A DNA stretch of 64,000 nucleotides from an uncultured virus (IMG/VR IMGVR_UViG_3300007346_007557) (IMGVR_UViG_3300007346_007557), one strand, 5' to 3'; numbered from the stretch's first letter, positions 4,951 to 60,950 are shown. Notes: generated from the sequence alone by a model not told the origin. Numbers and translations: made by a program.

Positions 4951-5204
4951 CAGACGACACGCATGATAAATTAATGCAAAAGGTACTAGACTACTTGGCT
5001 GCCAGCGAAGACTTTGAACGTTTACCAAGTGAACGCAGTAAAAGACGCATACGCAGAGAACTACGTGAACTAGTTACTTTGTGTAGACAACGAGCTGAAG
5101 AAGCTAAACAGAGATACAAAGAGGAGTTAGCCGAAATACGTGCCAGTGGCAAGTGGGCTGTCAATATTGGCAAGGCTAATCACGAAAGGAAAAAGAAAAA
5201 ATGA
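4947..5204 (+). CDS. Small basic helical hypothetical protein
   Basis: ATGA overlaps with both neighbours. Confidence 0.6.
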   Translation: MTDDTHDKLMQKVLDYLAASEDFERLPSERSKRRIRRELRELVTLCRQRAEEAKQRYKEELAEIRASGKWAVNIGKANHERKKKK

Positions 5205-12312: not shown

Positions 12313-14067
12313 ATGAGTTGGAAAAAATATTTTACTCCAGTTCCAACTGCTGACAATAGAAATGGCAGTTATTCGCCATTTTCTATGCGAGGTACAGGTA
12401 ACGTAGGTCCTGCTGCTGCAAATTATTCTTCTCATTTGCCTGACGTATATGTAGGGTCTCCAAATCGTATTGAACGTTATAATCAATACAATACAATGGA
12501 TAGTGATAGTGAAGTTAATGCTGCACTAGATATTCTTGCTGAGTTTTGTTCACAAAAAAACAAACAAAACGATACACATTTTGAAATTGATTTTAAAGGA
12601 TCACCTACTAACAGCGAAGTACAAGTTATAGGGCAATATCTAAAGCAATGGTGTAAATTAAATCAATTTGAAACACGTATGTTTAGAACAATACGTAATG
12701 CATTTAAATATGGCGACCAATTTTTTATTAGAGATCCACAGACACAAAAATGGTATCACGTTGATCCTAGTCAAGTAACAAAAATTATTGTTAACGAAAG
12801 CGAAGGAAAAAAGCCTGAGCAGTATGTTGTTAAAAATTTAAATTTTGCATTTGAAGCACTAGAAGCAACACCTTTAAACACAACTAATAGTTACGGACCT
12901 GGAGGAACAAGTCCAGGATATCAAACGGTTACAAAACAAAGCCAAACAGGTAATCATACACCAAGTGGTAACACAAGTAGATTTGCACAAGAACATGATG
13001 AAACTTATGTAGATGCAAATCATGTTGTACATTTGTCAATGAGTGAAGGACTTGATCAAAACTTTCCATTTGGTAATTCACTATTAGAAAGTATTTTTAA
13101 AGTATACAAACAAAAAGAATTATTAGAAGATGCGATTATTATCTATCGTGTACAACGTGCGCCAGAGCGCAGAGTATTCTACGTTGATGTGGGTAACATG
13201 CCTTCACACCTTGCTATGCAATTTGTGGAGCGTGTAAAAACGGAAATACACCAAAGACGTATCCCATCCAAGACAGGTGGTGGCACAAATGTTATAGACT
13301 CAAGTTATAATCCTCTGTCAATCAACGAAGATTACTTCTTTCCACAAACTGCTGAAGGGCGTGGCTCAAAAGTTGAAACACTTCCGGGTGGTACCAACTT
13401 AGGAGAAATTGATGACCTTAGATACTTTACTAATAAGTTGGTACGCGGCTTACGTATCCCAAGTTCGTACTTACCAACTGGAGCAGATGACGGTGCTTCA
13501 CAATACAATGATGGACGTGTGGGTACTGCCTATATTCAAGAACTTCGCTTTAACAAATACTGCGAACGTTTGCAATCCATGGTTGAAGAAGTATTCAACA
13601 AAGAGTTCAAACTATTCTTAGGTTCAAAAGGTGCAAATATTGATTTTGCAATGTTTGACTTAAGGTTAACACCACCACAAAACTTTGCAGCATATAGACA
13701 AGCAGAACTTGATAACAACAGAATAGGAACGTTTACGCAAATGGCAGGTATACCTTATATCTCAAATAGATTTGCTATGCAACGTTTCTTAGGATTAAGT
13801 GCAGAAGAGATTGCAGAAAACGAACGTTTGTGGAGAGAAGAGAACGACGAAAATCTAGTAGATCTAGTTAACGATGACATGGCAGGTGAAATGCGTGGTG
13901 CAGGCCTTAGCGGTGCTGACCTTGCAGGAGACCTAGGTGGTATGGAAACTGATCTAGAAGGAGACTTGGGCGGCATTGATGGCGGCACTGGAGAAGCACC
14001 GGCAACAAATACAGAAAATGATTTAGGCGGAACACCAGCACCTACTGAAACGGCACAAACTATATAA
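12313..14067 (+). CDS. gp20: Portal vertex protein
   Basis: LLEDAIIIYRVQRAPERRVFYVDVGNMP, EDYFFP, VETLPGG motifs of T4-like portals. Confidence 0.95.
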   Translation: MSWKKYFTPVPTADNRNGSYSPFSMRGTGNVGPAAANYSSHLPDVYVGSPNRIERYNQYNTMDSDSEVNAALDILAEFCSQKNKQNDTHFEIDFKGSPTNSEVQVIGQYLKQWCKLNQFETRMFRTIRNAFKYGDQFFIRDPQTQKWYHVDPSQVTKIIVNESEGKKPEQYVVKNLNFAFEALEATPLNTTNSYGPGGTSPGYQTVTKQSQTGNHTPSGNTSRFAQEHDETYVDANHVVHLSMSEGLDQNFPFGNSLLESIFKVYKQKELLEDAIIIYRVQRAPERRVFYVDVGNMPSHLAMQFVERVKTEIHQRRIPSKTGGGTNVIDSSYNPLSINEDYFFPQTAEGRGSKVETLPGGTNLGEIDDLRYFTNKLVRGLRIPSSYLPTGADDGASQYNDGRVGTAYIQELRFNKYCERLQSMVEEVFNKEFKLFLGSKGANIDFAMFDLRLTPPQNFAAYRQAELDNNRIGTFTQMAGIPYISNRFAMQRFLGLSAEEIAENERLWREENDENLVDLVNDDMAGEMRGAGLSGADLAGDLGGMETDLEGDLGGIDGGTGEAPATNTENDLGGTPAPTETAQTI

Positions 14068-16012: not shown

Positions 16013-16636
16013 ATGAGACTACTGAACGAACATTTGAGCTTTGATGCTGCTAAAATGGTTGTTGAGTCTGCCAACGAAGGCAAAGATCTTTACATGAAAG
16101 GTATTTGCATTCAAGGCGGAGTACGCAACGCAAATCAGCGTGTTTATCCCGTTAACGAGATTGGCAGGGCTGTCACCACACTCAACGAACAAATTAGTGG
16201 TGGCTACTCAGTGTTAGGCGAAGTAGATCATCCAGATGGACTTAATATTAACTTAGATCGTGTAAGCCATATGATTACAGAAATGTGGATGGATGGCCCA
16301 AACGGTTACGGTAAACTAAAAGTACTACCAACTCCGATGGGACAATTAGTTAAAACAATGCTAGAAAGCGGCGTTAAACTAGGTGTTTCATCGAGAGGTA
16401 GTGGTAATGTAAGCGAAAGCGGTAACGGTGAAGTATCAGATTTTGAAATTATTACCGTAGACGTTGTGGCGCAGCCAAGTGCGCCAGGCGCATACCCAAC
16501 ACCGATATACGAACACCTTATGAACACCCGAGGAGGGTATAAGGCGTTCCAAACATCAAGGGAAGTTCAAGGCGACAAACAGGCACAAAAATATTTAAAA
16601 GAGAGCTTATTAGATGTAATAAGCAAACTCCGCTAA
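16013..16636 (+). CDS. gp21: Prohead protease
   Basis: NANQRVYP, LGEVDHP, VSSRGSG, DVVAQPSAPGA motifs. Confidence 0.93.
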   Translation: MRLLNEHLSFDAAKMVVESANEGKDLYMKGICIQGGVRNANQRVYPVNEIGRAVTTLNEQISGGYSVLGEVDHPDGLNINLDRVSHMITEMWMDGPNGYGKLKVLPTPMGQLVKTMLESGVKLGVSSRGSGNVSESGNGEVSDFEIITVDVVAQPSAPGAYPTPIYEHLMNTRGGYKAFQTSREVQGDKQAQKYLKESLLDVISKLR

Positions 16637-17755: not shown

Positions 17756-18928
17756 ATGTCAGAACTACTAGAAAGTCGCTGGCAAGATACAAAAACAGCA
17801 CTTCTTGAAGGCCTATCAGGCAATAAGAAAGCAGTAATGGCTTCAACATTAGAAAATACTCGCAAGTATTTGGCTGAAACTGCAACTGCTGGTGCTACAT
17901 CTGCCGGTAACATCGCAACACTTAACCGTGTTATCCTACCAGTGATTAGACGTGTTATGCCAACCGTCATCGCTAATGAAATCGTTGGTGTTCAACCAAT
18001 GACTGGACCAGTTGGTCAAATTCACACACTACGTGTTCGCTACAGCGACACAGCAGGCTCAGGCGCAGCAGGCGCAGTAGCTGGTGAAGAAGCACTATCA
18101 CCATTCAAAATCGCAGAAGCATATTCAGGTAATGCTACAACAGCAAAAGCTGATGCAACTGCGGCACTAGAAGGTGCAGCTGGTAACAGACTAAGCATCC
18201 AGATCTTGAAACAGACCGTGGAAGCTAAATCACGTAAGCTATCAGCACGTTGGACATTTGAAGCGGCACAAGACGCTCAAGCACAACACGGTATCGACGT
18301 AGAAGCAGAAATCATGGCTGCACTAGCACAAGAGATTACTGCAGAAATCGACCAAGAGATTCTAGCATCTCTAAACACACTAGCAGGAACAGGTACAGAC
18401 ACATTTAACCAAGCGGCTGTATCAGGTACTGCAACATTCGTTGGTGACGAACATGCTGCACTAGCAGTATTAGTTAACCGCGCAGCAAACCGCATCGCAC
18501 AGCGTACACGCCGTGGTGCAGGTAACTGGGCTGTTGTTTCACCAGCAATCCTAACCGTACTACAAAGTGCAACTACATCAGCATTTGCACGTACTACAGA
18601 GGGTACATTTGAAGCACCGACAAACACAAAAATGGTTGGTACATTGAACAATGCAATGAAAGTATATGTAAACACATATGCAGCAGACGACGATGTACTA
18701 GTTGGTTACAAAGGTACTAGCGAATCAGACGCAGCAGCGTTCTACTGCCCATACATCCCATTGATGAGCAGTGGCGTTGTACTAGATCCGACATCATTCG
18801 AACCAGTTGTGAGCTTCATGACACGTTACGGATATGTTGAGCTATCAAACACAGCATCGTCGCTAGGTAACGCAGCTGACTACCTAGAAAAGGTAGAAGT
18901 AAACAGCGGAAACCTAAGCTTCAGCTAA
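17756..18928 (+). CDS. gp23: Major capsid protein
   Basis: VGVQPMTGPVGQI, VEAKSRKLSARWTFE, FYCPYIPL, FMTRYG motifs; strong RBS, biased codons. Confidence 0.97.
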   Translation: MSELLESRWQDTKTALLEGLSGNKKAVMASTLENTRKYLAETATAGATSAGNIATLNRVILPVIRRVMPTVIANEIVGVQPMTGPVGQIHTLRVRYSDTAGSGAAGAVAGEEALSPFKIAEAYSGNATTAKADATAALEGAAGNRLSIQILKQTVEAKSRKLSARWTFEAAQDAQAQHGIDVEAEIMAALAQEITAEIDQEILASLNTLAGTGTDTFNQAAVSGTATFVGDEHAALAVLVNRAANRIAQRTRRGAGNWAVVSPAILTVLQSATTSAFARTTEGTFEAPTNTKMVGTLNNAMKVYVNTYAADDDVLVGYKGTSESDAAAFYCPYIPLMSSGVVLDPTSFEPVVSFMTRYGYVELSNTASSLGNAADYLEKVEVNSGNLSFS

Positions 18929-18948: not shown

Positions 18949-18977
18949 AAAATAGGCCCTACGGGGCCTATTTTTTT
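18949..18977 (+). terminator. Rho-independent terminator after capsid gene
   Basis: AATAGGCCC-TACG-GGGCCTATT followed by T-run. Confidence 0.85.
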
Positions 18978-18990
18978 GGTATATATTACA

Positions 18991-19830
18991 ATGAAGTTTA
19001 ATGTTAATAAACATATTGAATATAGAAACAATCGATTTACCAAAGTATCAATATCTAATCCTAAGTTATTAGGATTAGCTACAATAGAAATTAATCCAAC
19101 AGAATTATGCAACAGAACTTGTAGTTTTTGTCCTAGAGTTAATCCTTTATTATATCCAAATCGTAATTTAAATATGACAATAGAAACAGCTCAATTAATT
19201 GTTGAACAATTATTAGATGCTGAGTATAATGGAGATATTAATATTACAGGATTTGGCGAACCATTATTAAATAAAGACATTGTACAAATATGTACTATAT
19301 TTTCTAAACATTATCATACTGAATTAATAACAAACGGCGATAATATTTTAAATGGTAAAATTACTTTACAAGATTTAGAATTCTTAGATTTATTAATTAT
19401 TGATTGTTACGATGGCAAAGAACAAGTAAAAAAATTTAAAAATTTACTTAAAAATAAAAAAAATAAATTTATATTGCGTCCACATTATGACACTGGAGAT
19501 CCTGCATTAATTAATCAATATGGATTTAACAACAGAGGTGGATTATTATACAAAAAATCTAACAGCAATCCTTGTTATATGCCGTCATATAAAGGATTTA
19601 TAGATTGGAATGGAGATGTAAGACTTTGTTGTAATGATTGGAGTAGGAAGCAATTACCATTTGGAAATATACATAATAATACATTTTCAAAAATATGGAT
19701 GAATAATAATTTTGTAAAATTAAGACAAGAATTATACAACGGTAATAGAAATTTTAGTAATGCTTGCGAGACTTGTGATGTATGTGGTACAAAAGTAGGA
19801 AAAAATAGTGCTGAATTATTTTTAAGCTAA
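18991..19830 (+). CDS. Radical SAM protein with C-terminal SPASM/twitch domain
   Basis: CNRTCSFC motif, GFGEPLL, TNG; C-terminal C...CCND...CETC; very AT-rich. Confidence 0.85.
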   Translation: MKFNVNKHIEYRNNRFTKVSISNPKLLGLATIEINPTELCNRTCSFCPRVNPLLYPNRNLNMTIETAQLIVEQLLDAEYNGDINITGFGEPLLNKDIVQICTIFSKHYHTELITNGDNILNGKITLQDLEFLDLLIIDCYDGKEQVKKFKNLLKNKKNKFILRPHYDTGDPALINQYGFNNRGGLLYKKSNSNPCYMPSYKGFIDWNGDVRLCCNDWSRKQLPFGNIHNNTFSKIWMNNNFVKLRQELYNGNRNFSNACETCDVCGTKVGKNSAELFLS

Positions 19831-19837
19831 GTACATA

Positions 19838-20539
19838 ATGGATATTAGTATTGAAAAAACTCCAAAACAAAAGTTAAGTAAATATGCAATTGATACTGCA
19901 AGCGGTATTAGTATTACTCATTTGCCTAACACAAGTCTTTCAAAGGTAAAAGATGCAGCAATAGAAATTAATGATTTAGCTGGAAGTTCAAAAGCTATGG
20001 CACATATTGCTGCACGTAATATACAAAGTGAAACTGAACTACATGAAAATTGTATTGCAATGCGCAAAGCAGGTGTTGATAAAGTTTTACTTATTGGAGG
20101 CAGTACGTATCATGGAAAAGTTTTTCAAACATTTTATGAAGTAAGAGATGCTATAGAATCATATGGCTTTGATATGTATTGTGGTGTATATCCACAAAGT
20201 GAAACTTACTCTAACATGGCATACACAAAGTATTTGCATTTTAAAGGAGGAATAAGTCAACTATGTTTCAATCCTAAAATGTTAAATACTTGGGAAAAGA
20301 AGACACGGTACGGTGTTGCAACTAACTGCTCTCTAGACGGTTTATGGAAATATGCAAAAATTTGTGGAATAACAGATAGTGTTGCTTATGCATTAGGCAA
20401 TTTAAGAGGATTAACATACGTTACTATGAAAGGATTTAACACGGTAAAGTTTGTAAAAGATTTAAGAAATGACAATCCTATACATCTTTATAATTTTGGA
20501 AAGTTAGATCAAACACTATTACAATTGGAGATGATGTAA
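19838..20539 (+). CDS. Methylenetetrahydrofolate reductase-like (MetF-type FAD TIM barrel), short form
   Basis: ITHLP, HIAARN, VLLIGG, GVYP, ISQLCF resemble MTHFR motifs. Confidence 0.6.
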   Translation: MDISIEKTPKQKLSKYAIDTASGISITHLPNTSLSKVKDAAIEINDLAGSSKAMAHIAARNIQSETELHENCIAMRKAGVDKVLLIGGSTYHGKVFQTFYEVRDAIESYGFDMYCGVYPQSETYSNMAYTKYLHFKGGISQLCFNPKMLNTWEKKTRYGVATNCSLDGLWKYAKICGITDSVAYALGNLRGLTYVTMKGFNTVKFVKDLRNDNPIHLYNFGKLDQTLLQLEMM

Positions 20540-20736
20540 TGCCAACAGGAACAATTTACAAATATAATAAAAATAGAAAGTTTAGTGTTATTAGACCTGA
20601 TAACTGGAAAACAGGATTAATTGATGTACTATTTGAAACAATTACTTTTGATGCAAAACTAGGTGATCGTGTTGAATACGATCAAATACAAATAAAAAGT
20701 AAAAGATATGCACAAAATCTTAAAAAAATAGGTTGA
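20539..20736 (+). CDS. Cold-shock-domain-like (OB-fold) protein, degenerate RNP motifs
   Basis: 65 aa; TGTIYKYN...FSVIRPD...DVLF...GDRVEY pattern follows the CspA layout. Confidence 0.6.
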   Translation: MPTGTIYKYNKNRKFSVIRPDNWKTGLIDVLFETITFDAKLGDRVEYDQIQIKSKRYAQNLKKIG

Positions 20737-20761
20737 CCTTTGTGTATTCTTTTGCTATATT
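20733..20761 (+). promoter_or_regulatory. sigma70-like promoter pointing into a non-coding region
   Basis: TTGACC, 17 bp, TATATT. Confidence 0.7.
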
Positions 20762-20769
20762 AAGAACAT

Positions 20770-20970
20770 AACAAAGACGACGGTCCGAGTTAGATAGTGC
20801 AAGGAAACGCTGCTTGGTAGAGGCAGTAACTTGGCTAGTAGTTGTAGTGACAGCGCATGAGCAAGGAGACTTGAAGATGTGTTTTTGGAAGTAACTATCC
20901 GATGCTAGGCTTCGCTTTTATGGAAGGATCTACAAAGGCGATTGTTGGTAATCCTTAATCCAACCTATCA
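20770..20970 (+). ncRNA. Candidate stand-alone pseudoknotted ncRNA (family not recognised)
   Basis: Own promoter and terminator, no ORF, dense nested and crossing helices. Confidence 0.65.
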
Positions 20971-21017
20971 TATATTATTAATCGTAATACGCGATGCTGA
21001 ACCTCGATTAATAAATT

Positions 21018-21047
21018 AAAAAGGTCTACTCTGGTAGGCCTTTTTTT
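21018..21047 (+). terminator. Rho-independent terminator closing the ncRNA unit
   Basis: AGGTCTAC-TCTG-GTAGGCCT followed by T-run. Confidence 0.85.
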
Positions 21048-21077
21048 GTGAACATAATAACCCATTTTTATGTTTTT

Positions 21078-21177
21078 GATAAATACTTATGTTAAGGTAA
21101 CGAGCCTCAACGAGGACTTATGAGGACCCAACCTCGTAGACCATAGAACGGCAAATGATTAAAAAAAGGAGAAAATC
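21078..21177 (+). promoter_or_regulatory. Late promoter plus structured 5' leader
   Basis: GATAAATA 21078-21085; GC-rich alternative helices 21096-21142; AAGGAG RBS. Confidence 0.5.
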
Positions 21178-21543
21178 ATGGGACGCCCAGTAAACAAAAG
21201 AAACTTCGGTACAACCGGTGTAGACGCAACACCAAAGGTGCCAATTAGATTCCACGACGGATCAAGTTTAATTGAAGGATATATTCTTTCACAAAGAGGA
21301 ACAAATAAATTTAATTGTTCAAACGACGGTGACACAATCACAAGAGTATGCAGACTTACATCAGACGGTTCAGCACCAAACGCAAATTTCGAATGTCAAC
21401 TAATTGGTATCGGTGCAGGCGGCGGTGCAATTGCAATTAAGAAATTGTTCAACAGAACAGCAGTAGATTACAATAACAATCGTTATACATGGACAACAGA
21501 AGACGACTCTACAGAATCATTGCTAAGATTAACTGCAATTTAA
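21178..21543 (+). CDS. Hypothetical virion structural protein
   Basis: Late promoter, strong RBS, first gene of the fibre operon. Confidence 0.6.
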   Translation: MGRPVNKRNFGTTGVDATPKVPIRFHDGSSLIEGYILSQRGTNKFNCSNDGDTITRVCRLTSDGSAPNANFECQLIGIGAGGGAIAIKKLFNRTAVDYNNNRYTWTTEDDSTESLLRLTAI

Positions 21544-21554
21544 GGAGTTAAACT

Positions 21555-22562
21555 ATGGGTATCTTTGTTAATCGAATAGGTGGTAACTACTACAAATTAC
21601 AAGTTGATACAGGCGGAGATATTATTCTTGATGTCGGTACAACGGGTAAAGTTACCATTGACGGTGACTTAGATGTGTTAGGTGAACAAACCAGTGTTGG
21701 ATCCACTCAACTTGTTGTAGACGATAATACTATTACCGTTAACAACGGAGAGACTGGAAATGGTATAACACTAGGAACTGCCGGACTTATTATGGATCGC
21801 GGTACTGATGATGATGCTCACTTCTTTTTTGATGAATCATTAGTCGGTAAAGGTGCTGAAATTGATGGTGCATTTGTAACAAGAATTGCCACAGGCGATT
21901 TAGTTAGCTTATACACCAATGCAATATTAACAAACGGCGAGACACTATATTTGGTAGGTACTGGTACAGGACTTGCAACGGTAACTGGTACAACTGATTA
22001 TGAAAAACAAATTTGGAATTACACAGGCGATAACATTAACTTAGAACCTTTAAATCCAGATGGATTAGTTGCACCTAACGATGACGATGCTTTACTCAAT
22101 GTAAAAGGTTTACAGGACTATGTCCGAGACTATTTTGCAATTAACTTTCAAGAAAAAATTACCACAGGAACTTTAACTCCTACAAGAGTTGAAGCATTTG
22201 ATACAGAAACTGGTGGAGTTACAAGTAGAGTTGAAATTAGTGTAGATGATACAATAATTGCAACTTTTTATGAAACTAGAGTAGAATTTGAAAATTTAAG
22301 ATTTGACGATGACACTATTACTAGTAACGGAATCAACGGTGATGTTGTGCTAAGAGCAGCAGGAACTGGATTTATTAAAATGGATGATTACACAAATTAT
22401 ACCATTCAAACAGATCCAGCTAGTCCTCCAACAGAAGGCACATTATTGTATAGTAAAACATTAGGAGATGGTGGTACAGGTTTGTATTTTAAAAATGAAG
22501 ACGGGACATCAGACGAATTGGTTAGTAGGAATAAAGCATTACTTTATAGTATTATATTTTAA
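21555..22562 (+). CDS. Virion structural (fibre/collar-associated) protein
   Basis: G/T/D-rich beta-strand repeats (GKVTIDGDLDVLG, LVVDDNTITVN) shared with the fibre proteins. Confidence 0.6.
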   Translation: MGIFVNRIGGNYYKLQVDTGGDIILDVGTTGKVTIDGDLDVLGEQTSVGSTQLVVDDNTITVNNGETGNGITLGTAGLIMDRGTDDDAHFFFDESLVGKGAEIDGAFVTRIATGDLVSLYTNAILTNGETLYLVGTGTGLATVTGTTDYEKQIWNYTGDNINLEPLNPDGLVAPNDDDALLNVKGLQDYVRDYFAINFQEKITTGTLTPTRVEAFDTETGGVTSRVEISVDDTIIATFYETRVEFENLRFDDDTITSNGINGDVVLRAAGTGFIKMDDYTNYTIQTDPASPPTEGTLLYSKTLGDGGTGLYFKNEDGTSDELVSRNKALLYSIIF

Positions 22563-22906: not shown

Positions 22907-25900
22907 ATGAGTTTTATTAAGAAGCAGTCATTACACAAAAGAAAAGTAGGAGATAAGTCATTTATTCTTACTGCCGACGGCAACATTGAGATGAATCTTG
23001 CTGCCGGTAAAACATTTACGGTAGATGCAGATTTCATAGCAACTGGAGATGTATCAGGTCCAAAAACAGAAAATGTTTTTTATGTTACAAAAGATGGTAG
23101 TGATGATAATGACGGCCGAAGTTCTGACGGTAAAGGTGCATTTGCAACAATTAAAAAAGCAGCTGAAGTAGCACCTTCTGGCTCAACAATCATTGTTGCA
23201 CCAGGCGATTATTTTGAAGAAAATCCTATTACACTTAAAGACTTTGTAACCATTACAGGACAAGGTGAATTACGTAATACAAGATTATTTCCAAAAAATA
23301 ATACATCAGACTTCTTCTATATGGGTAATGGCTGTTACTTGTATCAACTTACATTTAGGGCACTTCGTGCGCCAGGATGGTGTGTAAAGATTAGACCAGG
23401 TGCATTGGTTACAACATCTCCTTATGTACAAAACTGCACAAATATGAACGGTCCTTGGTTAAACGACGGTACTGAATTTATACCGTTTGAAACCGTTCAA
23501 ATTGAAGGAATTGAACCGGGCGCAAGACCACTAACGTTAGCAGATAATCCAAGTCTTCCATTTGACAAACAAGTAAACTTAACCGGTGGCGGTGGCGGGA
23601 TGTTTGTCGACGGCGACGAATATGATCCAGCATCACTTGTGTTTTCATTTGTTGCAGACGCATTTACACAAATTGCTCAAGGTGGTCCAGGATTTGAAGT
23701 TACTAACTTTGGTTATACTCAGATTGTTAGTTGCTTCTCTGTTTTCTGTTCAACAGGATTCAAAACAACAAAAGGCGGCTATTTAAGTATCTCTAACTCG
23801 GTATCTGACTTTGGTACATTTGGTTGTGTTGCAGATGGATTTTATCCAATTGCATATACACAAGCTGTGCCAACTGAAGATTATTTTAGTACCGTTGGTA
23901 GTATTACAATCAATCAACCAGGAGTTGGATATACCAGCAATCCTACAATTACAATCGAATCCCCAGACGGTGCAGGTGGTGTAACAGCTACCGCTACTGG
24001 ACAAGTCGACCTTACCACAGGACAATTAGCTGCTATTACAATCACAAATAATGGTAGTGGATATACATCAGTACCAACCGTTACAATTACAGGCGGTGGC
24101 GCAACTATTCAAGCAGAAGGTACCGTAAACTTAACAACAAATAGTGTTATATCATTAGCAAGTTTACGAGATAAACCACAAACTGGTAGTATTATAAAAT
24201 TTGATGACGACGATACATATTACTACATTACAGCAAACTCAATTACAAAGACGCCATTTAATTATAATGAAGAAACTTGTAAAAGAGATGTAAGACGTAT
24301 TGTTGATGCTGTAACAGGTGATATTGTTTTAGGAACATATTATCAAACAACAGCAGCCGCTACTAGCTATTTACGTAGTACATCAACAAAGGTTATTTTA
24401 GATCAATTAGAACCTACAATATATGCAATTGAAGCTGCTAGAGATCAAATGAAAGCAAGAACAACAAATCTTGCAATGAAAGAAGAAATTGATCAGCGTT
24501 TTAATATTATTACAACAACTTTAGCAGCAGGTGACAGCACTGAAACAGAATTTGTTGGTAGTGACTTTGTAAATGCATTAAATGATATTAATAGTATTGA
24601 TAATGAAATAATTGAAGCAAAAAATAACATTCTTGCTAATAGAGATTTTATTATAGAAGAACTTACTGCTTATATTAATGATCAGTTTACAGAACTAAGT
24701 TATAACCAAACAAAATATACTAGTGAAATGTCAGAATTTATTACAAGTATGGCATACTACGTAGGCTTTAATGGAAGCGATCATAAAGTTTTAAGGGCTG
24801 CTCGCGAATGGAGCAATAGTAGAGCAAGATTTAATGATATGATGATATCTAGCTTTAGATATTTACAACAACGTTTCCTTGCATTATCTGAAGTACAAGC
24901 AAGTGCAGTTGCAGTTACAAATGTTAATGAAGCATTTGAACAACTTGCAAACATTATTGACGAAGGCGATAGTGCAGGTATTACTACAGAATTTCCGGCA
25001 GCAGTTGGTACTAATCAAAATGAAATTGATGCTAGAGATCAATTAATTGCAAATATGGATTTCTTGAAAGCAGAATTTATTGCATATCTTGATAGCATTA
25101 ACTCAACTATAAGTTATACTCAAAGTAAGTTTGAACAAGATGTTGAAAATGCTGTAAATAGTGTAATTTACGATATTATGTACGGAGGTAATACTGCAAC
25201 TAAAAAAGAAGCTGATTATTACTTCAATAGCGAAACTTGGAGTTCTAATTATACTCAAGTTGAAAGACAAGCTATTATTGACTCATGGGCAAGAACACGT
25301 TTTGCAATGCAACGTATTGTAAGAGGATTGTCAATTACTCCAACTACTGGTAATGCGCAAACACAAGATTTTACAAGTGGCACTGCAACTCAAATCGAAG
25401 CAAATATTGCTGATAGCTTGATTCAGTATTACGAAACCGTTTTGACCGATTTAGCATTAACTAATCTACCACTTGATGTTTTACCGTTATACGATGATGA
25501 ATCTGTATTACAACAAGCAGCAGCAAATACTATTTTAGCACAAAGAGATAATTTCATTGAGGATGCAATTGCTTATAATTTAGCAAACAACCCAACTCTA
25601 ACATATGATGTATCAAAATGTAAAAGAGATGTAGAATATATTATAGATGCAATATACAGCGATGCACAATTAGGCACAAACCATCGCAGTATTACTGCTG
25701 GTTTAGCTTACCAGAGAGCTAATGTTGCTTATTTGAATACAGAACAAAAACCTGCTACAATTATTGCTATGCGTGAAGCAAAACGTTTGTTAGTTGCAGC
25801 GGCAAATGGTAATTCAACATTCCAAACTGATGTAAGCAATTTGTTCGATGTAGTGCTTGACATTATTGAATTTAATCAATTACCAAGTGAAGGAACCGTG

Positions 25901-28900
25901 TATCCTGAACCAGGGCCTGCAAGTACTGAATTAATTAATTCAACAAATCAACTAATTGCAAACAAAGATTTTTTAGTAGCTGAAGTTATTGCAAAGATTG
26001 CAGTAGATAACTTTGTTTATGATCAAGCAAAGTGCGAAAGAGATACTGGAATCATACTAGATGGTGTATATTATGATGCAGCATTTGGAACCAATTATAA
26101 TGCAGTGACAAGCGGTCTTGCATATCAAAGAGGTAATAGTGCAAAAGTAATTAGTGATCAAATTACAGAAACCGTTGGTGCATTAACATTTGCAAAAGGT
26201 GAAGCAGCAACAGCTTTAGTATCTAATACTACCGCAGTGTCTAGAAGTAATGCAGCATTTGATGAAATTATTGATATTATTCAAAATGGAGCCGAAGGTA
26301 CAGATCAAGCAGCAGATCCTTTAACGTTTCCTAATCCAACAAGTGCAACCGCAGCACAAATTGCTGCAAAAGAACAACTACAGAATAACAGAGACTTCTT
26401 AGCAGCGGAAGCAGTATCTTACATTCAAAATAACTATCAAAACTTTACTTATAATAGTGAAAAGTGTGAACGTGATGTTGGATTAATCATGGATGCTGTT
26501 GCACTTGATGTTGTATTAGGAACAAACTTTAATGCAGTTACAGCAGGTTTAGCATATCAACGTGCAAGCAATGACTACTTACAAGACAATCAAAAAATAC
26601 AAACACTTAGTGCTTTACGTCAACTTAAAAAAGAAATAGTAGAAATTGGATTAAGTGACGATGCTGAACCATTAGCTGAAGCAGCTATGGACGAAGTTAT
26701 TGATATTTTAGAAAATGGTGTAATTAGTACTGATACAGCCGCGGACGCACTAGTATTTCCTGCACCTAGTAGTCTACCAACTGCAAATGCAGTTGAAGCA
26801 AAAGATCAACTTGTTGCAAACAAAGAGTTTATTAAAGACGAAATAATTGCATGGATTGGTGTAAACTATCCTGCTTTAACATATGATGCAGTAAAATGTG
26901 AACGTGATGTTGGATATATTATTGATGCATTATGTCATGACATTTTATACGGTGGAAATAGTGCCACTAAAATTGCAGCAGAAAGTTACTTTGTTGGTGC
27001 TGCAAGTCAACTAGGATCAGGTCAACAAGCTGCGACCGTAGCAGCATATCAGAGACTAAAAGATGTTGTTGGTGACGTAGTTATGGAATTATCTGTTGTT
27101 AAATCAGCAGGTAATGCGTTAAATCAAGATACTTCAGGAACACCAGCAAGTTCTACTGAAGCAGATGATGTAGAAGGTTTAGTTCAAATAATTGAAGATG
27201 TAATTGCAGCAGGAAACATAAGCGGGTTACCTGCAACACAATATCCATCTTTAACTTGGGCTGCAAATGATTTACAAGAAGCATATAGTCAAATTAAAGG
27301 AAATAAAGAATTTGTACAAGAGCGTATATTAATTCATATTGCAAATAATTTCCAAAGTTTTGATTATGATGAAGTAAAATGTCGTAGAGATGTAGGAATT
27401 ATGATAGAAGCAGTTGCTTATGATGCAGCAATTGGTACAAATTACAATTCTGTAACAGCAGGTCTAGCCTATCAAAGAGCAAATAGTTCATATGTTTTAA
27501 GTGGACAAAACTTACAAACGGTGCTGGCAATTAGATATCTAAGAGATCAAATTGCAGCTAACGGAACTTTACAAAGTAGTTTTAGAAGTGCTACAACTGC
27601 TGGGTTTAATGAAATAATTGATATTATCGAAAATGGTGTAGTAAGCACAGATACAGCAGCTGACGCTCTTGTATTTCCAGATCCTGGTATAGATGCAAAT
27701 CAAGTCAATGCAAAAGATAGAATGATTGCTAACAAAGAATATGCAGCAAAAGAAACTTCTGCATTTGTTACAAATAACTATCCAGCGGTAGTTTTTGATA
27801 GCACAAAATGTGAAAGAGACGTAAAATATATCATTGATGCATTATGTTATGATATTATGTATGGCGGCAATCTTGCAACTAAGCAAGCCGCAGAAAGTTA
27901 CTTTGTTGGTGCTGCAAGTCAGTTAGGTGCTGGACAAGCTACCGCTACCGTTGCTGCATACAACGAATTAGCAAACTTGCTATCAGATATTGTTCAAAAC
28001 ATTGCTCATGCAAGTAACGAACAAGTTGTTGTAACACAAGACACAAGCGGAAGCGCATCAGATGCAGGTACTGGTGGTGAAATACAAGACTTGTTACAAA
28101 TAATTGAAGATGTTATTGCAGCAGGAAATATTACTAATATTCCAGCAGATTCTAACACTGATATTACTTGGACTAGCGTATTAAATCAAGATAATTTTAC
28201 TTCATTGGTTGCTACTACAAGTGATTATCAAAATTTAGTTATAAACTATATAGAAAGAACATTTACAAGAACATTTACATTTAATGCTACAAAATGTAAT
28301 AGAGATACCAAGTACATTGTTGATGCTTTAACATATGATATTATTTACGGTGGTAATGCTGCAACACTTGATGCTGCTAGAAGCTATTATGTTGGAACAA
28401 CAAGTCAAGTTACAGGACAACAACAAGAAACAGCAAATGCTCTTGGATGGATTAAAACTTTATTAGGTGATGTGTTATTAGATGTTGCAGTTGCCGATCC
28501 AGAACAAACTGCCGAAACACAAGATGTTACAGCAGGTGCAGCAAGTGCAACTGAAGTTACTAGAGCAGAAACATTATTACAAATTATTCAAGATGTTATT
28601 ACTGATGGTTTAGATCAACTGCCAACAGAAACATTCCCTTCTACAGGGTGGATTTCTGCAGGAATTCAAACTGCAATTGATAACTTAGTAAGTGAAAAAA
28701 CAACAATTGTTAATGATACTATAAGTTACATTGAAACAACATATAATGGCTTCAGTTATGATATTGATAAGTGTTCAAGAGATACAGGATACATTATTGA
28801 TGCTGTTACACACGATTTACTTTATCAAGGCAACATTGCGACACTTATTGCAACTAGAGCTTATTTCTTAGGTACAGCTAATTATTTGCCAGATGAACAA

Positions 28901-31900
28901 AAAGATATAACCGTTGCAGCATATGAACATTTAGCTCAAGTTGCAGCTGATTGTATAGAAGGTACAGCAGTTACTCCGTCTGTAGGAAACACAGAACCAC
29001 AAGTTCTTGGCGGAGCATATGGTACATCTACAGAATCAGGTCAAGCTGTATTATTGTTTAGAATTCCAAAAAATGCAATTGACAACGGAACACTTGTAGG
29101 TACACCTGCTGAAATACAACCAGATTTTGCTTGGTTGCCAGCAACTATAAAATCAGCAGCAACAGACATGTTAGCTCAAAAAGTTAATATTCAAAACGGT
29201 GTTATTTCTTATATTACAGATAATTTAATTGATTTTGAATATAATATTGTAAAGTGTAAAAGAGATACAGGATACATTATTGAAGCATTAATATATGATT
29301 TAATGTATGGTGGTAACAAACAAACACGTAGAGCTGCACAAGCATATTACAATGGTGCAATTTTAGGAGCAGCAAAAGTTGGTAATGCAGATCAAGTTTT
29401 AGTTACAGCATATTCATATTACTACTTAGGTGATATATTAGCAAAAGTTGCAAAGAACGAAACGGTTACAAAAAGTTACAACAATACTGAAGTACAGGTA
29501 ATTACAACACCCGATAGTGATGATACAACAGCAACTAGAATTGAATTGTTAATTGATAGAATAGCTTTAAGTGTTCTTGAAGGATACACAACAGGTTGGC
29601 AAGAGAATAATCATAACTACGAATTAGGTAGTGGTGCTTACTTAACTGAAAGAAACACTATATTAGCAGACTTAGAAAGTATTGTAACAACAACAATTGA
29701 CGACTTAAATGCTGAATACGGTGGTGAAGCAACTATTACTATCTTCCCAGGTGTTATTAGTGTAACACAAGATAAAAAGGCAAATCTTTATAATGTTAGT
29801 ACAATTTCTACATCGGGACATGCATTTGAATATGTAGGTGCAGGTGTTGATTATAATGCTCTACCTTTCTTTGGCGGCACAGCAATTTCAGAAAACGAAA
29901 TTGTACAACTTAACCAAGGTAAAGTATTTGCTGGTGGTACGGTTGACCAAATTGGTAACTTTAGAGTTGGTGACTTATTTGCAGTTAATGCTCTAACAGG
30001 TGCGATTGATCTAAATGCTAACCAAATTAGTTTAGAAGGCTTGACAAGTGTTGGTCCGTTTATTAGAAATGGTATTCCAGTTGGTGTCGAATTAAAAGAG
30101 GTTAGCGACAATACTAACTTACTTGCAAGTACAGGTACTCAAGACTTCCAAACTGCTCCTACACAAAGAGCTGTTGGAATTTATGTAGAAAATAGATATC
30201 TAAACAAATTAACTGGTGGTACGGTTACTGGTAATATTGTATTGAACGGTGACTTTGATGTTAACGGTGATGTTATTAGTACTGATACAAGTGGTACATT
30301 TAACCTACTTAATACAAGTGCTACTACTATAGAAGCATTTGGTGATGCAACTACCATTAACATGGGTGCGCCTACAGGTACATTTACAATTAATCCAGAT
30401 TTAGTTGTAGAAGGTGATTTAACCGTTAATGGTGATATTGTACTTACAGGTGATTACTCACTAAACATTCCAGATGAGAGCTTACAAGCGTATAGCATCA
30501 GTACTGAAGGTAGCTTAGACTACGTTAGTATTAACACAAGAACAGACGAAGAAAAAATTACTTTTGGAGAAAGACCACAAGTTGAAATTCAAAATCTAAT
30601 AGAGTCTACAAGCACTACAACAGGTGCATTAGTAGTTGATGGCGGTGTTGGAATAGCAAAAAGTTTGTATGTAGGTATTGATTTTACTGCTAATGGTAAT
30701 GTTATTCTTGGCGATGATAGAGCAGTTGACACTCTTGATATTAATGCTACAACAGATATTGATGTTCCAGATAACGCAACCGATGTGTTTAGAATTCATG
30801 AAAATATTAATGATTACATTAGTATAAACACAACAGATAATTCAGAAGTTGTAGAATTTGGCGCAACTCCTAATGTAATAATTCTAAATGCAGATGATGC
30901 TACTGATAATGTAACTGGTGCATTACAAGTTACAGGTGGTATTAGCACTCAAGTTAACGTTCATGCAGGACAAGATATTGTTGCTGACAGAGACATAATT
31001 GCAGACAGAGATATTGAAGTAAATGGTACTAATATCATTACTGACGAAACTGGAACATTTAATGTCTTTAACACAAACGCAACTACAATCAATGCATTTG
31101 GCGATGCTACTGCAATCAACATTGGTGCAGATACCGGTACATTAACCGTTGCAAACGAAATAACAATTTTTGATAGTGTGGAAGCAATCCAAATTCCAGT
31201 CGGTACTGATTTAGAACGTCCAACAGAAGCAACAGGTCAAATACGTTTTAACACTGACAGCACAAGTTTTGAAGGCTATGACGGAACAGCGTGGGGTAGC
31301 TTAGGCGGAGTAAGAGATGTTGATCAAGATACATTTATTAGACCAGAATCTACTCCAGGTGCAGACGAAGATACTATTACATTCCATACAAACGATGTTC
31401 AAAGGATGTCATTAGGCAATACTTTGTTAAACATTGATGCTACCGTAAAAGTAACAATAGATAGCACAGAAGTATCATCTAATTATAACACAGGCGCATT
31501 AGTAGTAGCCGGAGGTGTTGGTATTGCTAAAGACTTGTATGTTCAAGGATTTATTAGTGGTAATAATTCGGGTGTGTTACAGCTAACAGATCTTGCAAGT
31601 GACAAGATTTTAATCAAAGCTGACACAATTGAATCTCCAGAATCTATTAAATGGATATCAAATGCACCTGATAGTGCAGCAGATGATATTGTTTATCCAA
31701 TCAGTTTAGCACACCATAGTGTAAGCGGATCGCCAGCTGTTGGAAGCGGTACAGGACTAAGATTTGAACTTGAAACATCAAACAGCAATTATGAAATTGG
31801 CGGACAAATTGATTCAATTGTGCAAGACATAACTGGAAACCAAGAAGACTTTGACATGGTATTCAGCACTATGAATTCTGGTTCTGTTACTGAAAAGTTT

Positions 31901-32296
31901 AGACTGAGTGAAAATACAGCAACAATTACAACAAGTTTACAAGTTAATCAAAACTTAACCGTAACAGGATTGTTAGACGCAGCAAGTATTACAGCAAGTA
32001 TATATTCAGATGATAGTACTGAAATGCTTGATGCAATTAACAATAGACTTATTGTAACTACAGGTCAAATTGGTGAACTAACACTTACAACAGATCTTGA
32101 AGTACAATACGGTGGTACTGGTGTAAGCACATTTACAACAAATGGTATACTTTATGGTAACACAGCAGATCCAGTACAAGTTACAGATGCAGCAGGTACA
32201 AGTGATGCAAGCGAATCGTTCCAAATACTTACCGTAACAAGTGATGTTGATGCAACACCAGTTTGGACAGATACTATCGACGGTGGTAGCTTTTAA
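22907..32296 (+). CDS. Giant fibre/structural protein 1 (3129 aa): beta-helix-like N-domain, 12 helical CxRD-type repeats, beta-rich fibre C-terminus
   Basis: FYVTKDGSDDNDG...ATIKKA start of a pectin-lyase-like region; repeats YxxxKCxRD; GALVVxGGVGI fibre motifs; ends IDGGSF. Confidence 0.75.
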   Translation: MSFIKKQSLHKRKVGDKSFILTADGNIEMNLAAGKTFTVDADFIATGDVSGPKTENVFYVTKDGSDDNDGRSSDGKGAFATIKKAAEVAPSGSTIIVAPGDYFEENPITLKDFVTITGQGELRNTRLFPKNNTSDFFYMGNGCYLYQLTFRALRAPGWCVKIRPGALVTTSPYVQNCTNMNGPWLNDGTEFIPFETVQIEGIEPGARPLTLADNPSLPFDKQVNLTGGGGGMFVDGDEYDPASLVFSFVADAFTQIAQGGPGFEVTNFGYTQIVSCFSVFCSTGFKTTKGGYLSISNSVSDFGTFGCVADGFYPIAYTQAVPTEDYFSTVGSITINQPGVGYTSNPTITIESPDGAGGVTATATGQVDLTTGQLAAITITNNGSGYTSVPTVTITGGGATIQAEGTVNLTTNSVISLASLRDKPQTGSIIKFDDDDTYYYITANSITKTPFNYNEETCKRDVRRIVDAVTGDIVLGTYYQTTAAATSYLRSTSTKVILDQLEPTIYAIEAARDQMKARTTNLAMKEEIDQRFNIITTTLAAGDSTETEFVGSDFVNALNDINSIDNEIIEAKNNILANRDFIIEELTAYINDQFTELSYNQTKYTSEMSEFITSMAYYVGFNGSDHKVLRAAREWSNSRARFNDMMISSFRYLQQRFLALSEVQASAVAVTNVNEAFEQLANIIDEGDSAGITTEFPAAVGTNQNEIDARDQLIANMDFLKAEFIAYLDSINSTISYTQSKFEQDVENAVNSVIYDIMYGGNTATKKEADYYFNSETWSSNYTQVERQAIIDSWARTRFAMQRIVRGLSITPTTGNAQTQDFTSGTATQIEANIADSLIQYYETVLTDLALTNLPLDVLPLYDDESVLQQAAANTILAQRDNFIEDAIAYNLANNPTLTYDVSKCKRDVEYIIDAIYSDAQLGTNHRSITAGLAYQRANVAYLNTEQKPATIIAMREAKRLLVAAANGNSTFQTDVSNLFDVVLDIIEFNQLPSEGTVYPEPGPASTELINSTNQLIANKDFLVAEVIAKIAVDNFVYDQAKCERDTGIILDGVYYDAAFGTNYNAVTSGLAYQRGNSAKVISDQITETVGALTFAKGEAATALVSNTTAVSRSNAAFDEIIDIIQNGAEGTDQAADPLTFPNPTSATAAQIAAKEQLQNNRDFLAAEAVSYIQNNYQNFTYNSEKCERDVGLIMDAVALDVVLGTNFNAVTAGLAYQRASNDYLQDNQKIQTLSALRQLKKEIVEIGLSDDAEPLAEAAMDEVIDILENGVISTDTAADALVFPAPSSLPTANAVEAKDQLVANKEFIKDEIIAWIGVNYPALTYDAVKCERDVGYIIDALCHDILYGGNSATKIAAESYFVGAASQLGSGQQAATVAAYQRLKDVVGDVVMELSVVKSAGNALNQDTSGTPASSTEADDVEGLVQIIEDVIAAGNISGLPATQYPSLTWAANDLQEAYSQIKGNKEFVQERILIHIANNFQSFDYDEVKCRRDVGIMIEAVAYDAAIGTNYNSVTAGLAYQRANSSYVLSGQNLQTVLAIRYLRDQIAANGTLQSSFRSATTAGFNEIIDIIENGVVSTDTAADALVFPDPGIDANQVNAKDRMIANKEYAAKETSAFVTNNYPAVVFDSTKCERDVKYIIDALCYDIMYGGNLATKQAAESYFVGAASQLGAGQATATVAAYNELANLLSDIVQNIAHASNEQVVVTQDTSGSASDAGTGGEIQDLLQIIEDVIAAGNITNIPADSNTDITWTSVLNQDNFTSLVATTSDYQNLVINYIERTFTRTFTFNATKCNRDTKYIVDALTYDIIYGGNAATLDAARSYYVGTTSQVTGQQQETANALGWIKTLLGDVLLDVAVADPEQTAETQDVTAGAASATEVTRAETLLQIIQDVITDGLDQLPTETFPSTGWISAGIQTAIDNLVSEKTTIVNDTISYIETTYNGFSYDIDKCSRDTGYIIDAVTHDLLYQGNIATLIATRAYFLGTANYLPDEQKDITVAAYEHLAQVAADCIEGTAVTPSVGNTEPQVLGGAYGTSTESGQAVLLFRIPKNAIDNGTLVGTPAEIQPDFAWLPATIKSAATDMLAQKVNIQNGVISYITDNLIDFEYNIVKCKRDTGYIIEALIYDLMYGGNKQTRRAAQAYYNGAILGAAKVGNADQVLVTAYSYYYLGDILAKVAKNETVTKSYNNTEVQVITTPDSDDTTATRIELLIDRIALSVLEGYTTGWQENNHNYELGSGAYLTERNTILADLESIVTTTIDDLNAEYGGEATITIFPGVISVTQDKKANLYNVSTISTSGHAFEYVGAGVDYNALPFFGGTAISENEIVQLNQGKVFAGGTVDQIGNFRVGDLFAVNALTGAIDLNANQISLEGLTSVGPFIRNGIPVGVELKEVSDNTNLLASTGTQDFQTAPTQRAVGIYVENRYLNKLTGGTVTGNIVLNGDFDVNGDVISTDTSGTFNLLNTSATTIEAFGDATTINMGAPTGTFTINPDLVVEGDLTVNGDIVLTGDYSLNIPDESLQAYSISTEGSLDYVSINTRTDEEKITFGERPQVEIQNLIESTSTTTGALVVDGGVGIAKSLYVGIDFTANGNVILGDDRAVDTLDINATTDIDVPDNATDVFRIHENINDYISINTTDNSEVVEFGATPNVIILNADDATDNVTGALQVTGGISTQVNVHAGQDIVADRDIIADRDIEVNGTNIITDETGTFNVFNTNATTINAFGDATAINIGADTGTLTVANEITIFDSVEAIQIPVGTDLERPTEATGQIRFNTDSTSFEGYDGTAWGSLGGVRDVDQDTFIRPESTPGADEDTITFHTNDVQRMSLGNTLLNIDATVKVTIDSTEVSSNYNTGALVVAGGVGIAKDLYVQGFISGNNSGVLQLTDLASDKILIKADTIESPESIKWISNAPDSAADDIVYPISLAHHSVSGSPAVGSGTGLRFELETSNSNYEIGGQIDSIVQDITGNQEDFDMVFSTMNSGSVTEKFRLSENTATITTSLQVNQNLTVTGLLDAASITASIYSDDSTEMLDAINNRLIVTTGQIGELTLTTDLEVQYGGTGVSTFTTNGILYGNTADPVQVTDAAGTSDASESFQILTVTSDVDATPVWTDTIDGGSF

Positions 32297-50410: not shown

Positions 50411-50431
50411 TATTTATCGTTACGATAAATA
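50411..50431. promoter_or_regulatory. Perfectly palindromic divergent late promoter pair
   Basis: TATTTATCGT-T-ACGATAAATA gives GATAAATA on both strands, between divergent gp14 and gp13. Confidence 0.75.
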
Positions 50432-50446
50432 CTAGTGGAGAACAAT

Positions 50447-60910: not shown

Positions 60911-60937
60911 AATAGCGCCTTAGGGCGCTATTTTTTT
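60911..60937 (+). terminator. Rho-independent terminator
   Basis: AATAGCGCC-TTAG-GGCGCTATT plus T-run. Confidence 0.85.
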
Positions 60938-60950
60938 GGTTAAATACAAC

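Follow-up and report, generated by a model that had tools for sequence, protein, structure and literature searches.

Results

The 64,000-nucleotide stretch of DNA from an uncultured virus catalogued as IMGVR_UViG_3300007346_007557, which was analysed at its full length and is called the window throughout, contains a compact cassette for a structured RNA in a 441-nt gap (20737-21177) between two open reading frames (ORFs) for proteins of 65 and 121 amino acids (aa; 20539..20736 and 21178..21543, both on the plus strand). The cassette begins with a sigma70-type promoter (20733..20761, +), the -35 hexamer of which includes the stop codon of the 65-aa ORF, continues with an RNA core (20765..20976, +) and ends with an intrinsic terminator (21018..21047, +). 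As judged by comparison with Rfam and with related viral loci, this core is a diverged member of the manA family (RF01745), i.e. a conserved and highly structured RNA. An earlier interpretation made without database searches (the sequence-only reading) had seen here an independent transcription unit for a multiply pseudoknotted RNA that contains no ORF, without assigning it to a catalogued class. All sequence strings that it quoted are present where it placed them, and the gap indeed has no ORF longer than 36 aa; the structured, conserved RNA proved real, and its multiply pseudoknotted nature and its status as an independent unit held up as well, whereas four of the proposed helices turned out to be mispaired and the RNA is not a new one.

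When Rfam models were applied in E-value mode, manA matched 20774-20974 over its full length (model positions 1-192) with 39.2 bits against a cut-off of 55.2 and with an E-value of 1.3e-6 for the 64-kb window. At gathering thresholds, Rfam gives no match in the window, so both manA and a second RNA, freshwater-2 (see below), are visible only by their E-values. The consensus nucleotides GACG, AGUG, UAA, GGUA..UAAUCC and CCU-AUC are aligned in the window copy, its GUAGUG aligns with the consensus GUGGUG and its UAACUA with uaACCA, and the helix set of the seed is matched, consisting of a 5' hairpin, a closing helix, P3, a four-way domain with three hairpins and two 3' hairpins.

Relatives came from 64 viral-contig loci encoding homologs of the 121-aa protein and from eight loci for the 65-aa protein; once loci identical over the upstream 460 nt had been dropped, 47 records were scanned. 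Matches to manA with E<=0.01 occur in 22 of these, always over the full-length model, with eight records above the cut-off and a best score of 89.3 bits. All 20 hits that were coordinate-mapped in relatives lie approximately 140-160 nt 5' of the same 121-aa gene, and intermediates that are 71-99% identical by blastn link the window to relatives above the cut-off. A covariance model of our own (R1), built from 13 close copies, scores 231 bits on the window, where this is its single hit. It finds the element in 24 of 46 loci, including three (L014, L023 and L063) missed by Rfam, and itself misses one found by Rfam (L029), which brings the total to 25 of 46 loci, two of them truncated by contig ends. 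With eight of these 25 above the Rfam cut-off, the latter overlooks about two-thirds of the copies in this phage lineage. Three records (L016, L017 and L020) have a weak second R1 match at 2110-2178 (+; 20.2 bits), just 5' of the manA promoter, which is probably only the terminator or hairpin of the capsid gene. Among five records of cultured relatives and other cyanophages also scanned at E<=0.01, Prochlorococcus phage P-SSM2 alone is positive for manA, with no match in Vibrio phage 2.275.O, Sinorhizobium phage Phosso, Syn9 and S-PM2.

A new kind of ribozyme or an anti-defence RNA without kinship to any catalogued motif, which is what the sequence-only reading implied, might seem to be indicated by the empty Rfam result at gathering thresholds and by a blastn search with 20500-21600 that found no match in 50,697 phage records. 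Yet the Rfam check that this reading itself had named yields the full-length manA match with E 1.3e-6, a continuous series of copies in the same position extends up to 89.3 bits, and the nine helices, both pseudoknots and the conserved loops are common to the window copy, the 2010 seed alignment and the manA RNA of P-SSM2. The full-length match and the same-position copies above the cut-off refute a new RNA family, and we assign this possibility a negligible likelihood.

The fold could be worked out by comparison, with helices numbered P1-P9 here in 5'-to-3' order. On the plus strand, the core (20765..20976, delimited by the Rfam match, R1, pair counts and loop-partner permutation) begins with the 5' hairpin P1 (20769-92) with its GACG loop; P2 (GAUAG 20793-97 with CUAUC 20965-69) closes the whole domain; P3 (20800-33) and P4 (20835-40 with 20903-08) are further helices of the core; P5 (20841-42 with 20850-51) is a short hairpin of G20841-C20851 and U20842-A20850 with loop L5 (20843-49); P6 (20853-82) carries the GNRA loop GAGA (20866-69); and P7 (20885-902, loop L7 at 20890-97), P8 (20912-41, with AGGA 20925-28 in loop L8) and P9 (20944-64, loop L9 at 20949-59) complete the set. 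The plus strand folds better than its shuffles (z -2.46; equalled by 4 of 200), and the minus strand is not better than shuffles (z -1.14). In an alignment of 13 close sequences (MAFFT), 87.4% of the cells in these helices are paired, as compared with 29-43% when partners are slid along the alignment, and 28 pairs show two-sided changes versus 3-11 for slid partners, a result equalled by none of 500 shuffles. MAFFT alone misaligned divergent subgroups, and covariance-model alignment was used for these instead. In the resulting set of 22 sequences, which is fitted to the nested structure and hence biased toward the model, pairing reaches 93.2% of cells (35-40% slid), and two-sided changes are seen in 59 of 73 pairs (21-27 slid). 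Even the minimal P5 takes part, with U20842-A20850 becoming C-G in nine relatives. Comparison of 22 relatives thus supports a nine-helix manA fold for the window RNA.

Several hairpins proposed from the single sequence, i.e. CTGCTT/AGGCAG, CAAG-GAGA-CTTG, CTAGT(A)/(T)GCTAG, TCGCTTT/AAGGCGA and GTTGG/CCAAC, covary in the relatives and are part of this fold. No covariation supports the helices CCGAGTTA/TAACTTGG and GTTGT/ACAGC or the two helices said to cross the first of these, CAAGGAAAC/GTTTTTG and GATAGT/ACTATC: all four together have one two-sided pair change in 13 sequences, a yield equalled in 396-469 of 500 shuffles. The GAUAG strand pairs better with CUAUC 20965-69, and we think that GATAGT/ACTATC was in fact the L5-L7 pair described below, drawn with the wrong partner.

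Two loop-loop pairings connect these hairpins in the window: UAGU 20845-48 in L5 can pair with ACUA 20894-97 in L7, and AGGA 20925-28 in L8 with UCCU 20952-55 in L9 (both on the plus strand). The latter is the core of a kissing loop, AAGGAT/ATCCTT, already noticed in the sequence-only reading, and it covaries. Both loop pairs are also annotated in the 2010 seed alignment (SS_cons_1 for L5/L7 and SS_cons_2 for L8/L9; PMC2864571, supplement file 5). In the 22-sequence alignment, where these two helices lie outside the model to which the sequences were fitted, the two pairs at fixed register have 93.7% and 78.4% of their cells paired. When loop partners were swapped among sequence classes, a permutation that ignores relatedness, the longest Watson-Crick duplex between L8 and L9 averaged 3.92 bp for matched versus 2.82 bp for permuted partners (equalled in 0 of 5000 permutations), and that between L5 and L7 3.64 versus 3.10 bp (12 of 5000). 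Among the relatives, L8/L9 occurs in six classes, AGGA/UCCU, AUGA/UCAU, CAGA/UCUG, UGAU/AUCA, GUGG/UCAC (with one G-U) and GGU(A)/(U)ACC, and L5/L7 alternates between UAGU/ACUA and UGGU/ACCA. Together with the pair counts, this covariation of loop partners bears out a multiply pseudoknotted RNA.

The signals that would start and stop this RNA are also conserved. In the window, the promoter consists of a -35 element TTGACC (20733-38), a 17-nt spacer, an extended TG (20753-54) and a -10 element TATATT (20756-61), is preceded by an A-rich tract, and is one of just two strict TTGAC-N17-19-TATAWT sites in 64 kb; a scan also recovered the very promoter that had been proposed. The terminator, A5-GGUCUAC-UCUG-GUAGGCC-U7, likewise stands as proposed, with a 12-bp stem followed by seven T in the minimum free energy (MFE) fold. 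It was not listed by a terminator scan of the window, presumably because the A/T extension of its stem uses up the T-run. Flanks were read in 23 copies, i.e. the window and 22 loci, omitting L020 as identical to L016 as well as L006 and L069, which are cut by contig ends. All 23 feature ggTTGACy, a freely varying spacer of 16-17 nt and tGyTATATT (TATTAT in two copies), with the promoter ending 4-7 nt before the RNA and 2-4 nt before the model hit. In all 23, a GC-rich hairpin of -11.6 to -27 kcal/mol likewise follows 0-15 nt past the RNA and leads into a T-rich tail, and the terminator stems show compensatory changes (GGTCTGC/GCAGGCC, GGTCTAC/GTAGGCC, AGCTCG/CGAGCT, GCCCGA/TCGGGC and GGCATG/CATGCC). 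Between core and terminator, the MFE fold of the window has an AT-rich hairpin (20975..21014, +) with a 10-bp stem TTATTAATCG/CGATTAATAA and a 20-nt loop; these 40 nt are an insertion in the window and a near-identical record only and are missing from the other 22 copies.

Beyond the terminator, the 121-aa gene has signals of its own. A box GATAAATAC (21078..21086, +) resembles the consensus of T4-type late promoters, TATAAATA, and would serve the downstream message. Four copies of this box are present in the window versus 1.07 expected; the other three are at 50424, 54927 and 55652 (+), and two of these lie just 5' of plus-strand ORFs (at 50435 and 54959), a distribution that fits a late-promoter motif of this phage. 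Past the manA terminator the box reads (G/C)ATAAATAC in the copies compared, and it is conserved before the leader of the 121-aa gene in loci with as well as without manA. Between the manA terminator and the box lies a block CATTATAACCCATTTT (21049-21077, +), which is conserved in most manA-bearing relatives and absent or altered in the most divergent ones (L022, L050, L063, L066 and L016/17). The leader itself (21104..21180, +) matches freshwater-2 (RF02980) over model positions 1-84, scoring 44.9 bits at a cut-off of 49.9. Its 3' end takes in the ribosome-binding site and the ATG of the 121-aa gene, and it lies outside the manA unit. Freshwater-2, which reportedly originates from a 2017 survey of 224 motifs, is found in 46 of the 47 related records, 27 of them above the cut-off; the matches listed by a full-text literature search on it were all unrelated.

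Both this leader and the 121-aa gene are constant, whereas 25 of 46 loci carry the manA cassette. Sixteen manA-less loci were read, and in these the upstream gene or its terminator is directly followed by a leader of the same type and then by the gene (L068 differs), with an exact ATAAATA box in nine of the 16. Because a late-type promoter and a freshwater-2 leader of its own precede the downstream gene whether manA is present or not, promoter, manA and terminator as read from these loci form a separate, optional small-RNA cassette and not the 5' leader of the published description. As a 5'-untranslated region (5'-UTR), the window copy is out of place, with a terminator, a late-type box and a freshwater-2 leader intervening before the next gene; as a small-RNA gene, it has its own conserved promoter and terminator, and its presence is independent of the flanking genes.

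These data also bear on a cis-acting riboswitch or attenuator, in which the ligand state of the RNA would gate termination at 21018-21047 versus read-through into the 121-aa and virion genes. A promoter, a structured RNA, a terminator and a gene on one strand are the classic layout of such a device, manA has been described as a riboswitch candidate in 5'-UTRs (in the available portions of PMC2864571 and PMC7657543), and the manA RNA of P-SSM2 is located directly 5' of a gene. At the locus studied here, however, the conserved late-type box and the freshwater-2 leader stand between terminator and gene irrespective of manA, the cassette comes and goes while gene and leader remain, the long and GC-rich terminator stems covary on their own, and a 40-nt insertion between core and terminator in the window has cost neither of them. 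Moreover, inspection of the 23 copies by eye, with no formal search, revealed no conserved complementarity between the 3' part of the RNA and the terminator arms. With its own promoter and leader for the gene, a dispensable cassette and no conserved anti-terminator pairing seen, we consider regulation in cis at this locus quite improbable.

RNA of environmental origin was considered as well. Parts of 20700-21300 occur in 24 public metatranscriptome runs, and Logan contigs of four of these, from four freshwater studies, were compared over 20400-21600; such contigs cannot give transcript ends, strand or level, and depths are not comparable between genes. All four runs have a short contig of 205-222 nt that contains manA only and shows no differences from the window (20786-21007, 20786-20992, 20798-21008 and 20798-21002), i.e. 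the contigs extend into the AT-rich hairpin, where they end at 20992-21008. In each run, the 121-aa gene is found in separate long contigs that start at 21101-21112, and 20400-20686 is covered by contigs in one of the four. Two runs also contain a variant manA contig with changes at paired positions (U20842C with A20850G, A20864U with U20871A, and U20880C). No contig joins manA to its neighbours, with 20687-20768 and 21015-21096 uncovered in all four runs, which we do not count as evidence. An adapter abutting 20783 in one X1 contig marks the end of a library fragment and not a transcription start. Since contigs do not reveal ends, strand or level, the separate manA contigs are a weak hint of a separate RNA. 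They accompany the promoter with its variable spacer and the terminator with its compensatory stems, found in all 23 copies, in bearing out the independent transcription unit of the sequence-only reading.

In its wider context, the window has a T4-type portal gene (12313-14067), prohead protease (16013-16636), Gp23-type capsid protein (17756-18928) and large terminase (60936-62531), the capsid protein sharing 64-69% identity with its counterparts in giant phages such as GAP32, PA5oct, Vibrio phage 2.275.O and Phosso. The source is an uncultured giant phage with T4-type core genes. The nearest record (G001) is a 50-kb fragment that has the same two RNAs, manA and freshwater-2, on board; because these 50 kb were rated 14% complete, the full genome probably spans several hundred kb. 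A scan of the window for tRNA and tmRNA genes found none.

Neither the 65-aa nor the 121-aa ORF has a PHROG or Pfam match at E<=1e-3. The 65-aa ORF, immediately upstream of manA, had been called cold-shock-like, and this now rests solely on a sub-threshold match to Pfam CSD over the whole domain length (E 0.061; 13.6 bits at a cut-off of 27). In 15 of 23 copies, manA is preceded by a relative of this ORF, which also occurs at four manA-less loci (L072-L075); its product is a possible RNA-binding partner of manA. The 121-aa ORF, which belongs to no known family and has 64 related loci, opens the downstream block of late virion genes.

Between the capsid gene and the manA cassette, there are also genes for a radical-SAM/SPASM protein of 284 aa (18976-19830, +) and for a 233-aa protein of no known family (19838-20539, +). 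The stretch 18976-20539 is variable among relatives, in many of which the 65-aa ORF or manA follows almost immediately after the capsid gene. Past the late block follow two huge ORFs, 22907-32296 (3129 aa, with repeated segments) and 32406-43259 (3617 aa; both +), presumably for fibre or other virion proteins. A tryptophan-halogenase-family ORF (5201-6844, +; Pfam E 2.2e-77) is situated amid replication and repair genes.

Discussion

Taken as a whole, our data are best explained by a free manA RNA gene that does not act in cis, the product of which would be made early and would assemble into pentamer-based oligomers, and we hold this explanation to be probable. Its family membership, its fold, its conserved start and stop signals and its independence from the downstream gene can be read from the aligned sequences. 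Transcription would start near 20767-20769, at the foot of the first hairpin, from the strong sigma70-type promoter at 20733-20761, and would stop at the terminator at 21018-21047, giving a predicted transcript of approximately 280 nt here and approximately 240 nt in relatives without the AT-rich hairpin. This RNA should take the nine-helix manA fold with its GNRA-capped P6 and four-base complementarities between L5 and L7 and between L8 and L9, and would function as a free molecule. Synthesis by host polymerase early in infection is suggested by the type of its promoter and by nothing else.

A key question is whether the two loop-loop pairs form within or between molecules. A 2026 cryo-EM preprint reports, in the available portions of its text, that pentamer-based decamers, octamers and an icosahedral cage of 60 subunits are built from manA RNAs, with intermolecular L5-L7' and L8-L9' kissing loops as assembly contacts and, in one manA RNA, a contact of the L6 GNRA loop with a receptor that helps to hold the assembly (bioRxiv 10.64898/2026.07.01.735769). 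By analogy, L5/L7 and L8/L9 of the RNA described here may pair between molecules to generate closed pentamer-based oligomers. Since the preprint shows manA cages held by such loop contacts, we lean toward self-assembly rather than an intramolecular knot, with the balance between the two close to even.

Alternatively, the RNA could be a free-standing, compact monomer with intramolecular loop pairs that serves in trans as a decoy, sponge or sensor by binding a protein or a small ligand. The 2010 alignment marks both loop pairs as pseudoknots of one molecule, the covariation described above fits this equally well, L5 and L7 emanate from the same multi-helix junction, and the weakly CSD-like 65-aa protein, encoded upstream in 15 of 23 copies, could be its partner. 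The structures in the preprint, however, place both contacts between molecules, at least as reported in the accessible text. Furthermore, an L8-L9 contact within one molecule seems awkward because P8 with about 12 bp and P9 with 5 bp are of very unequal length and have only 2 nt between them, and with respect to a protein partner, the 65-aa gene is also found without manA and manA without the 65-aa gene. We regard such a monomer as a serious minority possibility, held at rather less than even chances.

Several points weigh against a free, self-assembling manA RNA at this locus. In the preprint, as far as its available text goes, the assemblies were made in vitro, and our equation of its L5-L9 with the loops numbered here is a presumptive one, drawn from helix order and from the GNRA loop on the sixth helix (GAGA in the window, gaaa in the Rfam consensus). 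Covariation does not separate intramolecular from intermolecular pairing; the signal for L5-L7 is modest and takes no account of relatedness, and one relative (L076) has no convincing L8-L9 match. If family membership is taken to require the gathering score, the window copy at 39.2 bits stays below it. The environmental contigs map neither the 5' nor the 3' end of the RNA; they begin 18-30 nt past the predicted start and stop short of the terminator hairpin. Finally, other members of the manA family have or may have a role in cis because the manA RNA of P-SSM2 lies approximately 15 nt before a gene with no terminator between them.

Going one step further, manA RNA made from its host-type promoter in infected cells might close up, through its covarying L5-L7 and L8-L9 loops, into a shell or ring made solely of RNA that has its own function, perhaps the sequestration of a host factor or a defence sensor, maybe aided by the cold-shock-like neighbour. 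This is a speculative proposal that we think is unlikely to hold in full; if true, manA as an entire family would not be a class of riboswitches.

Since 2010, manA has been an orphan 'riboswitch candidate'. A self-contained gene in the window and in 22 further copies, with its own promoter and terminator, a cassette structure independent of the next gene and a contig of its own in environmental RNA, favours an RNA that is trans-acting or self-acting and speaks against regulation in cis. With six natural L8/L9 classes available, the locus also provides a compact natural test case for whether RNA cages form and are of consequence during infection.

In comparison with the manA motif as published (Weinberg et al. 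2010, PMC2864571), the RNA described here adds a new member, scoring below the threshold, to a known family, and its layout as a free-standing gene departs from the published description. Both have nine helices, the GACG loop of the first hairpin, a GNRA loop on P6, AGUG past the closing helix, UAA past P3, GGUA...UAAUCC in P9, GU(A/G)GUG in L5 and UAAC(U/C)A in L7 as well as both loop-loop pairings. The window copy differs in a longer P6, extended via an internal loop and a CAAG-GAGA-CUUG tip, in its L8/L9 pair (AGGA/UCCU versus CUGU/ACAG in the motif), in residing in a giant phage instead of a cyanophage, and in being followed by a terminator instead of a gene. Literature searches found no paper that describes a free-standing manA RNA or reports the family from this group of phages; the supplements of the preprint lie outside these searches and may bear on this point, and its available text still refers to manA as a 5'-UTR element (10.64898/2026.07.01.735769). 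With the manA RNAs solved by cryo-EM in that preprint, again going by its available text, the window RNA has in common the L5-L7 and L8-L9 complementarities and a GNRA loop L6, here known from sequence alone.

The canonical manA RNA of P-SSM2 (NC_006883, 142837-143034; 181.6 bits) has the same helices and the same loop complementarities as the window copy (UGGU/ACCA and CUGUA/UACAG, with a GCAA loop on P6), and it is likewise preceded, a few nucleotides before its first hairpin, by a promoter (TTGACA-17-TATAAT) with a TG. There, however, the ATG of the next gene (annotated as purL) follows after approximately 15 nt without a terminator hairpin, which is the published 5'-leader layout, whereas in the window the RNA is separated from the next gene by a terminator, another promoter and another leader RNA.

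In its genetic organization, the window cassette has a further counterpart in phage morons, i.e. insertions between two phage genes that come with their own promoter and terminator. Like these, it is an optional cassette with a sigma70-type promoter and an intrinsic terminator, which is found in about half of the relatives and occupies a moron-like position between the capsid-side genes and the late operon. In contrast to morons, however, its cargo is not a protein gene but a structured RNA.

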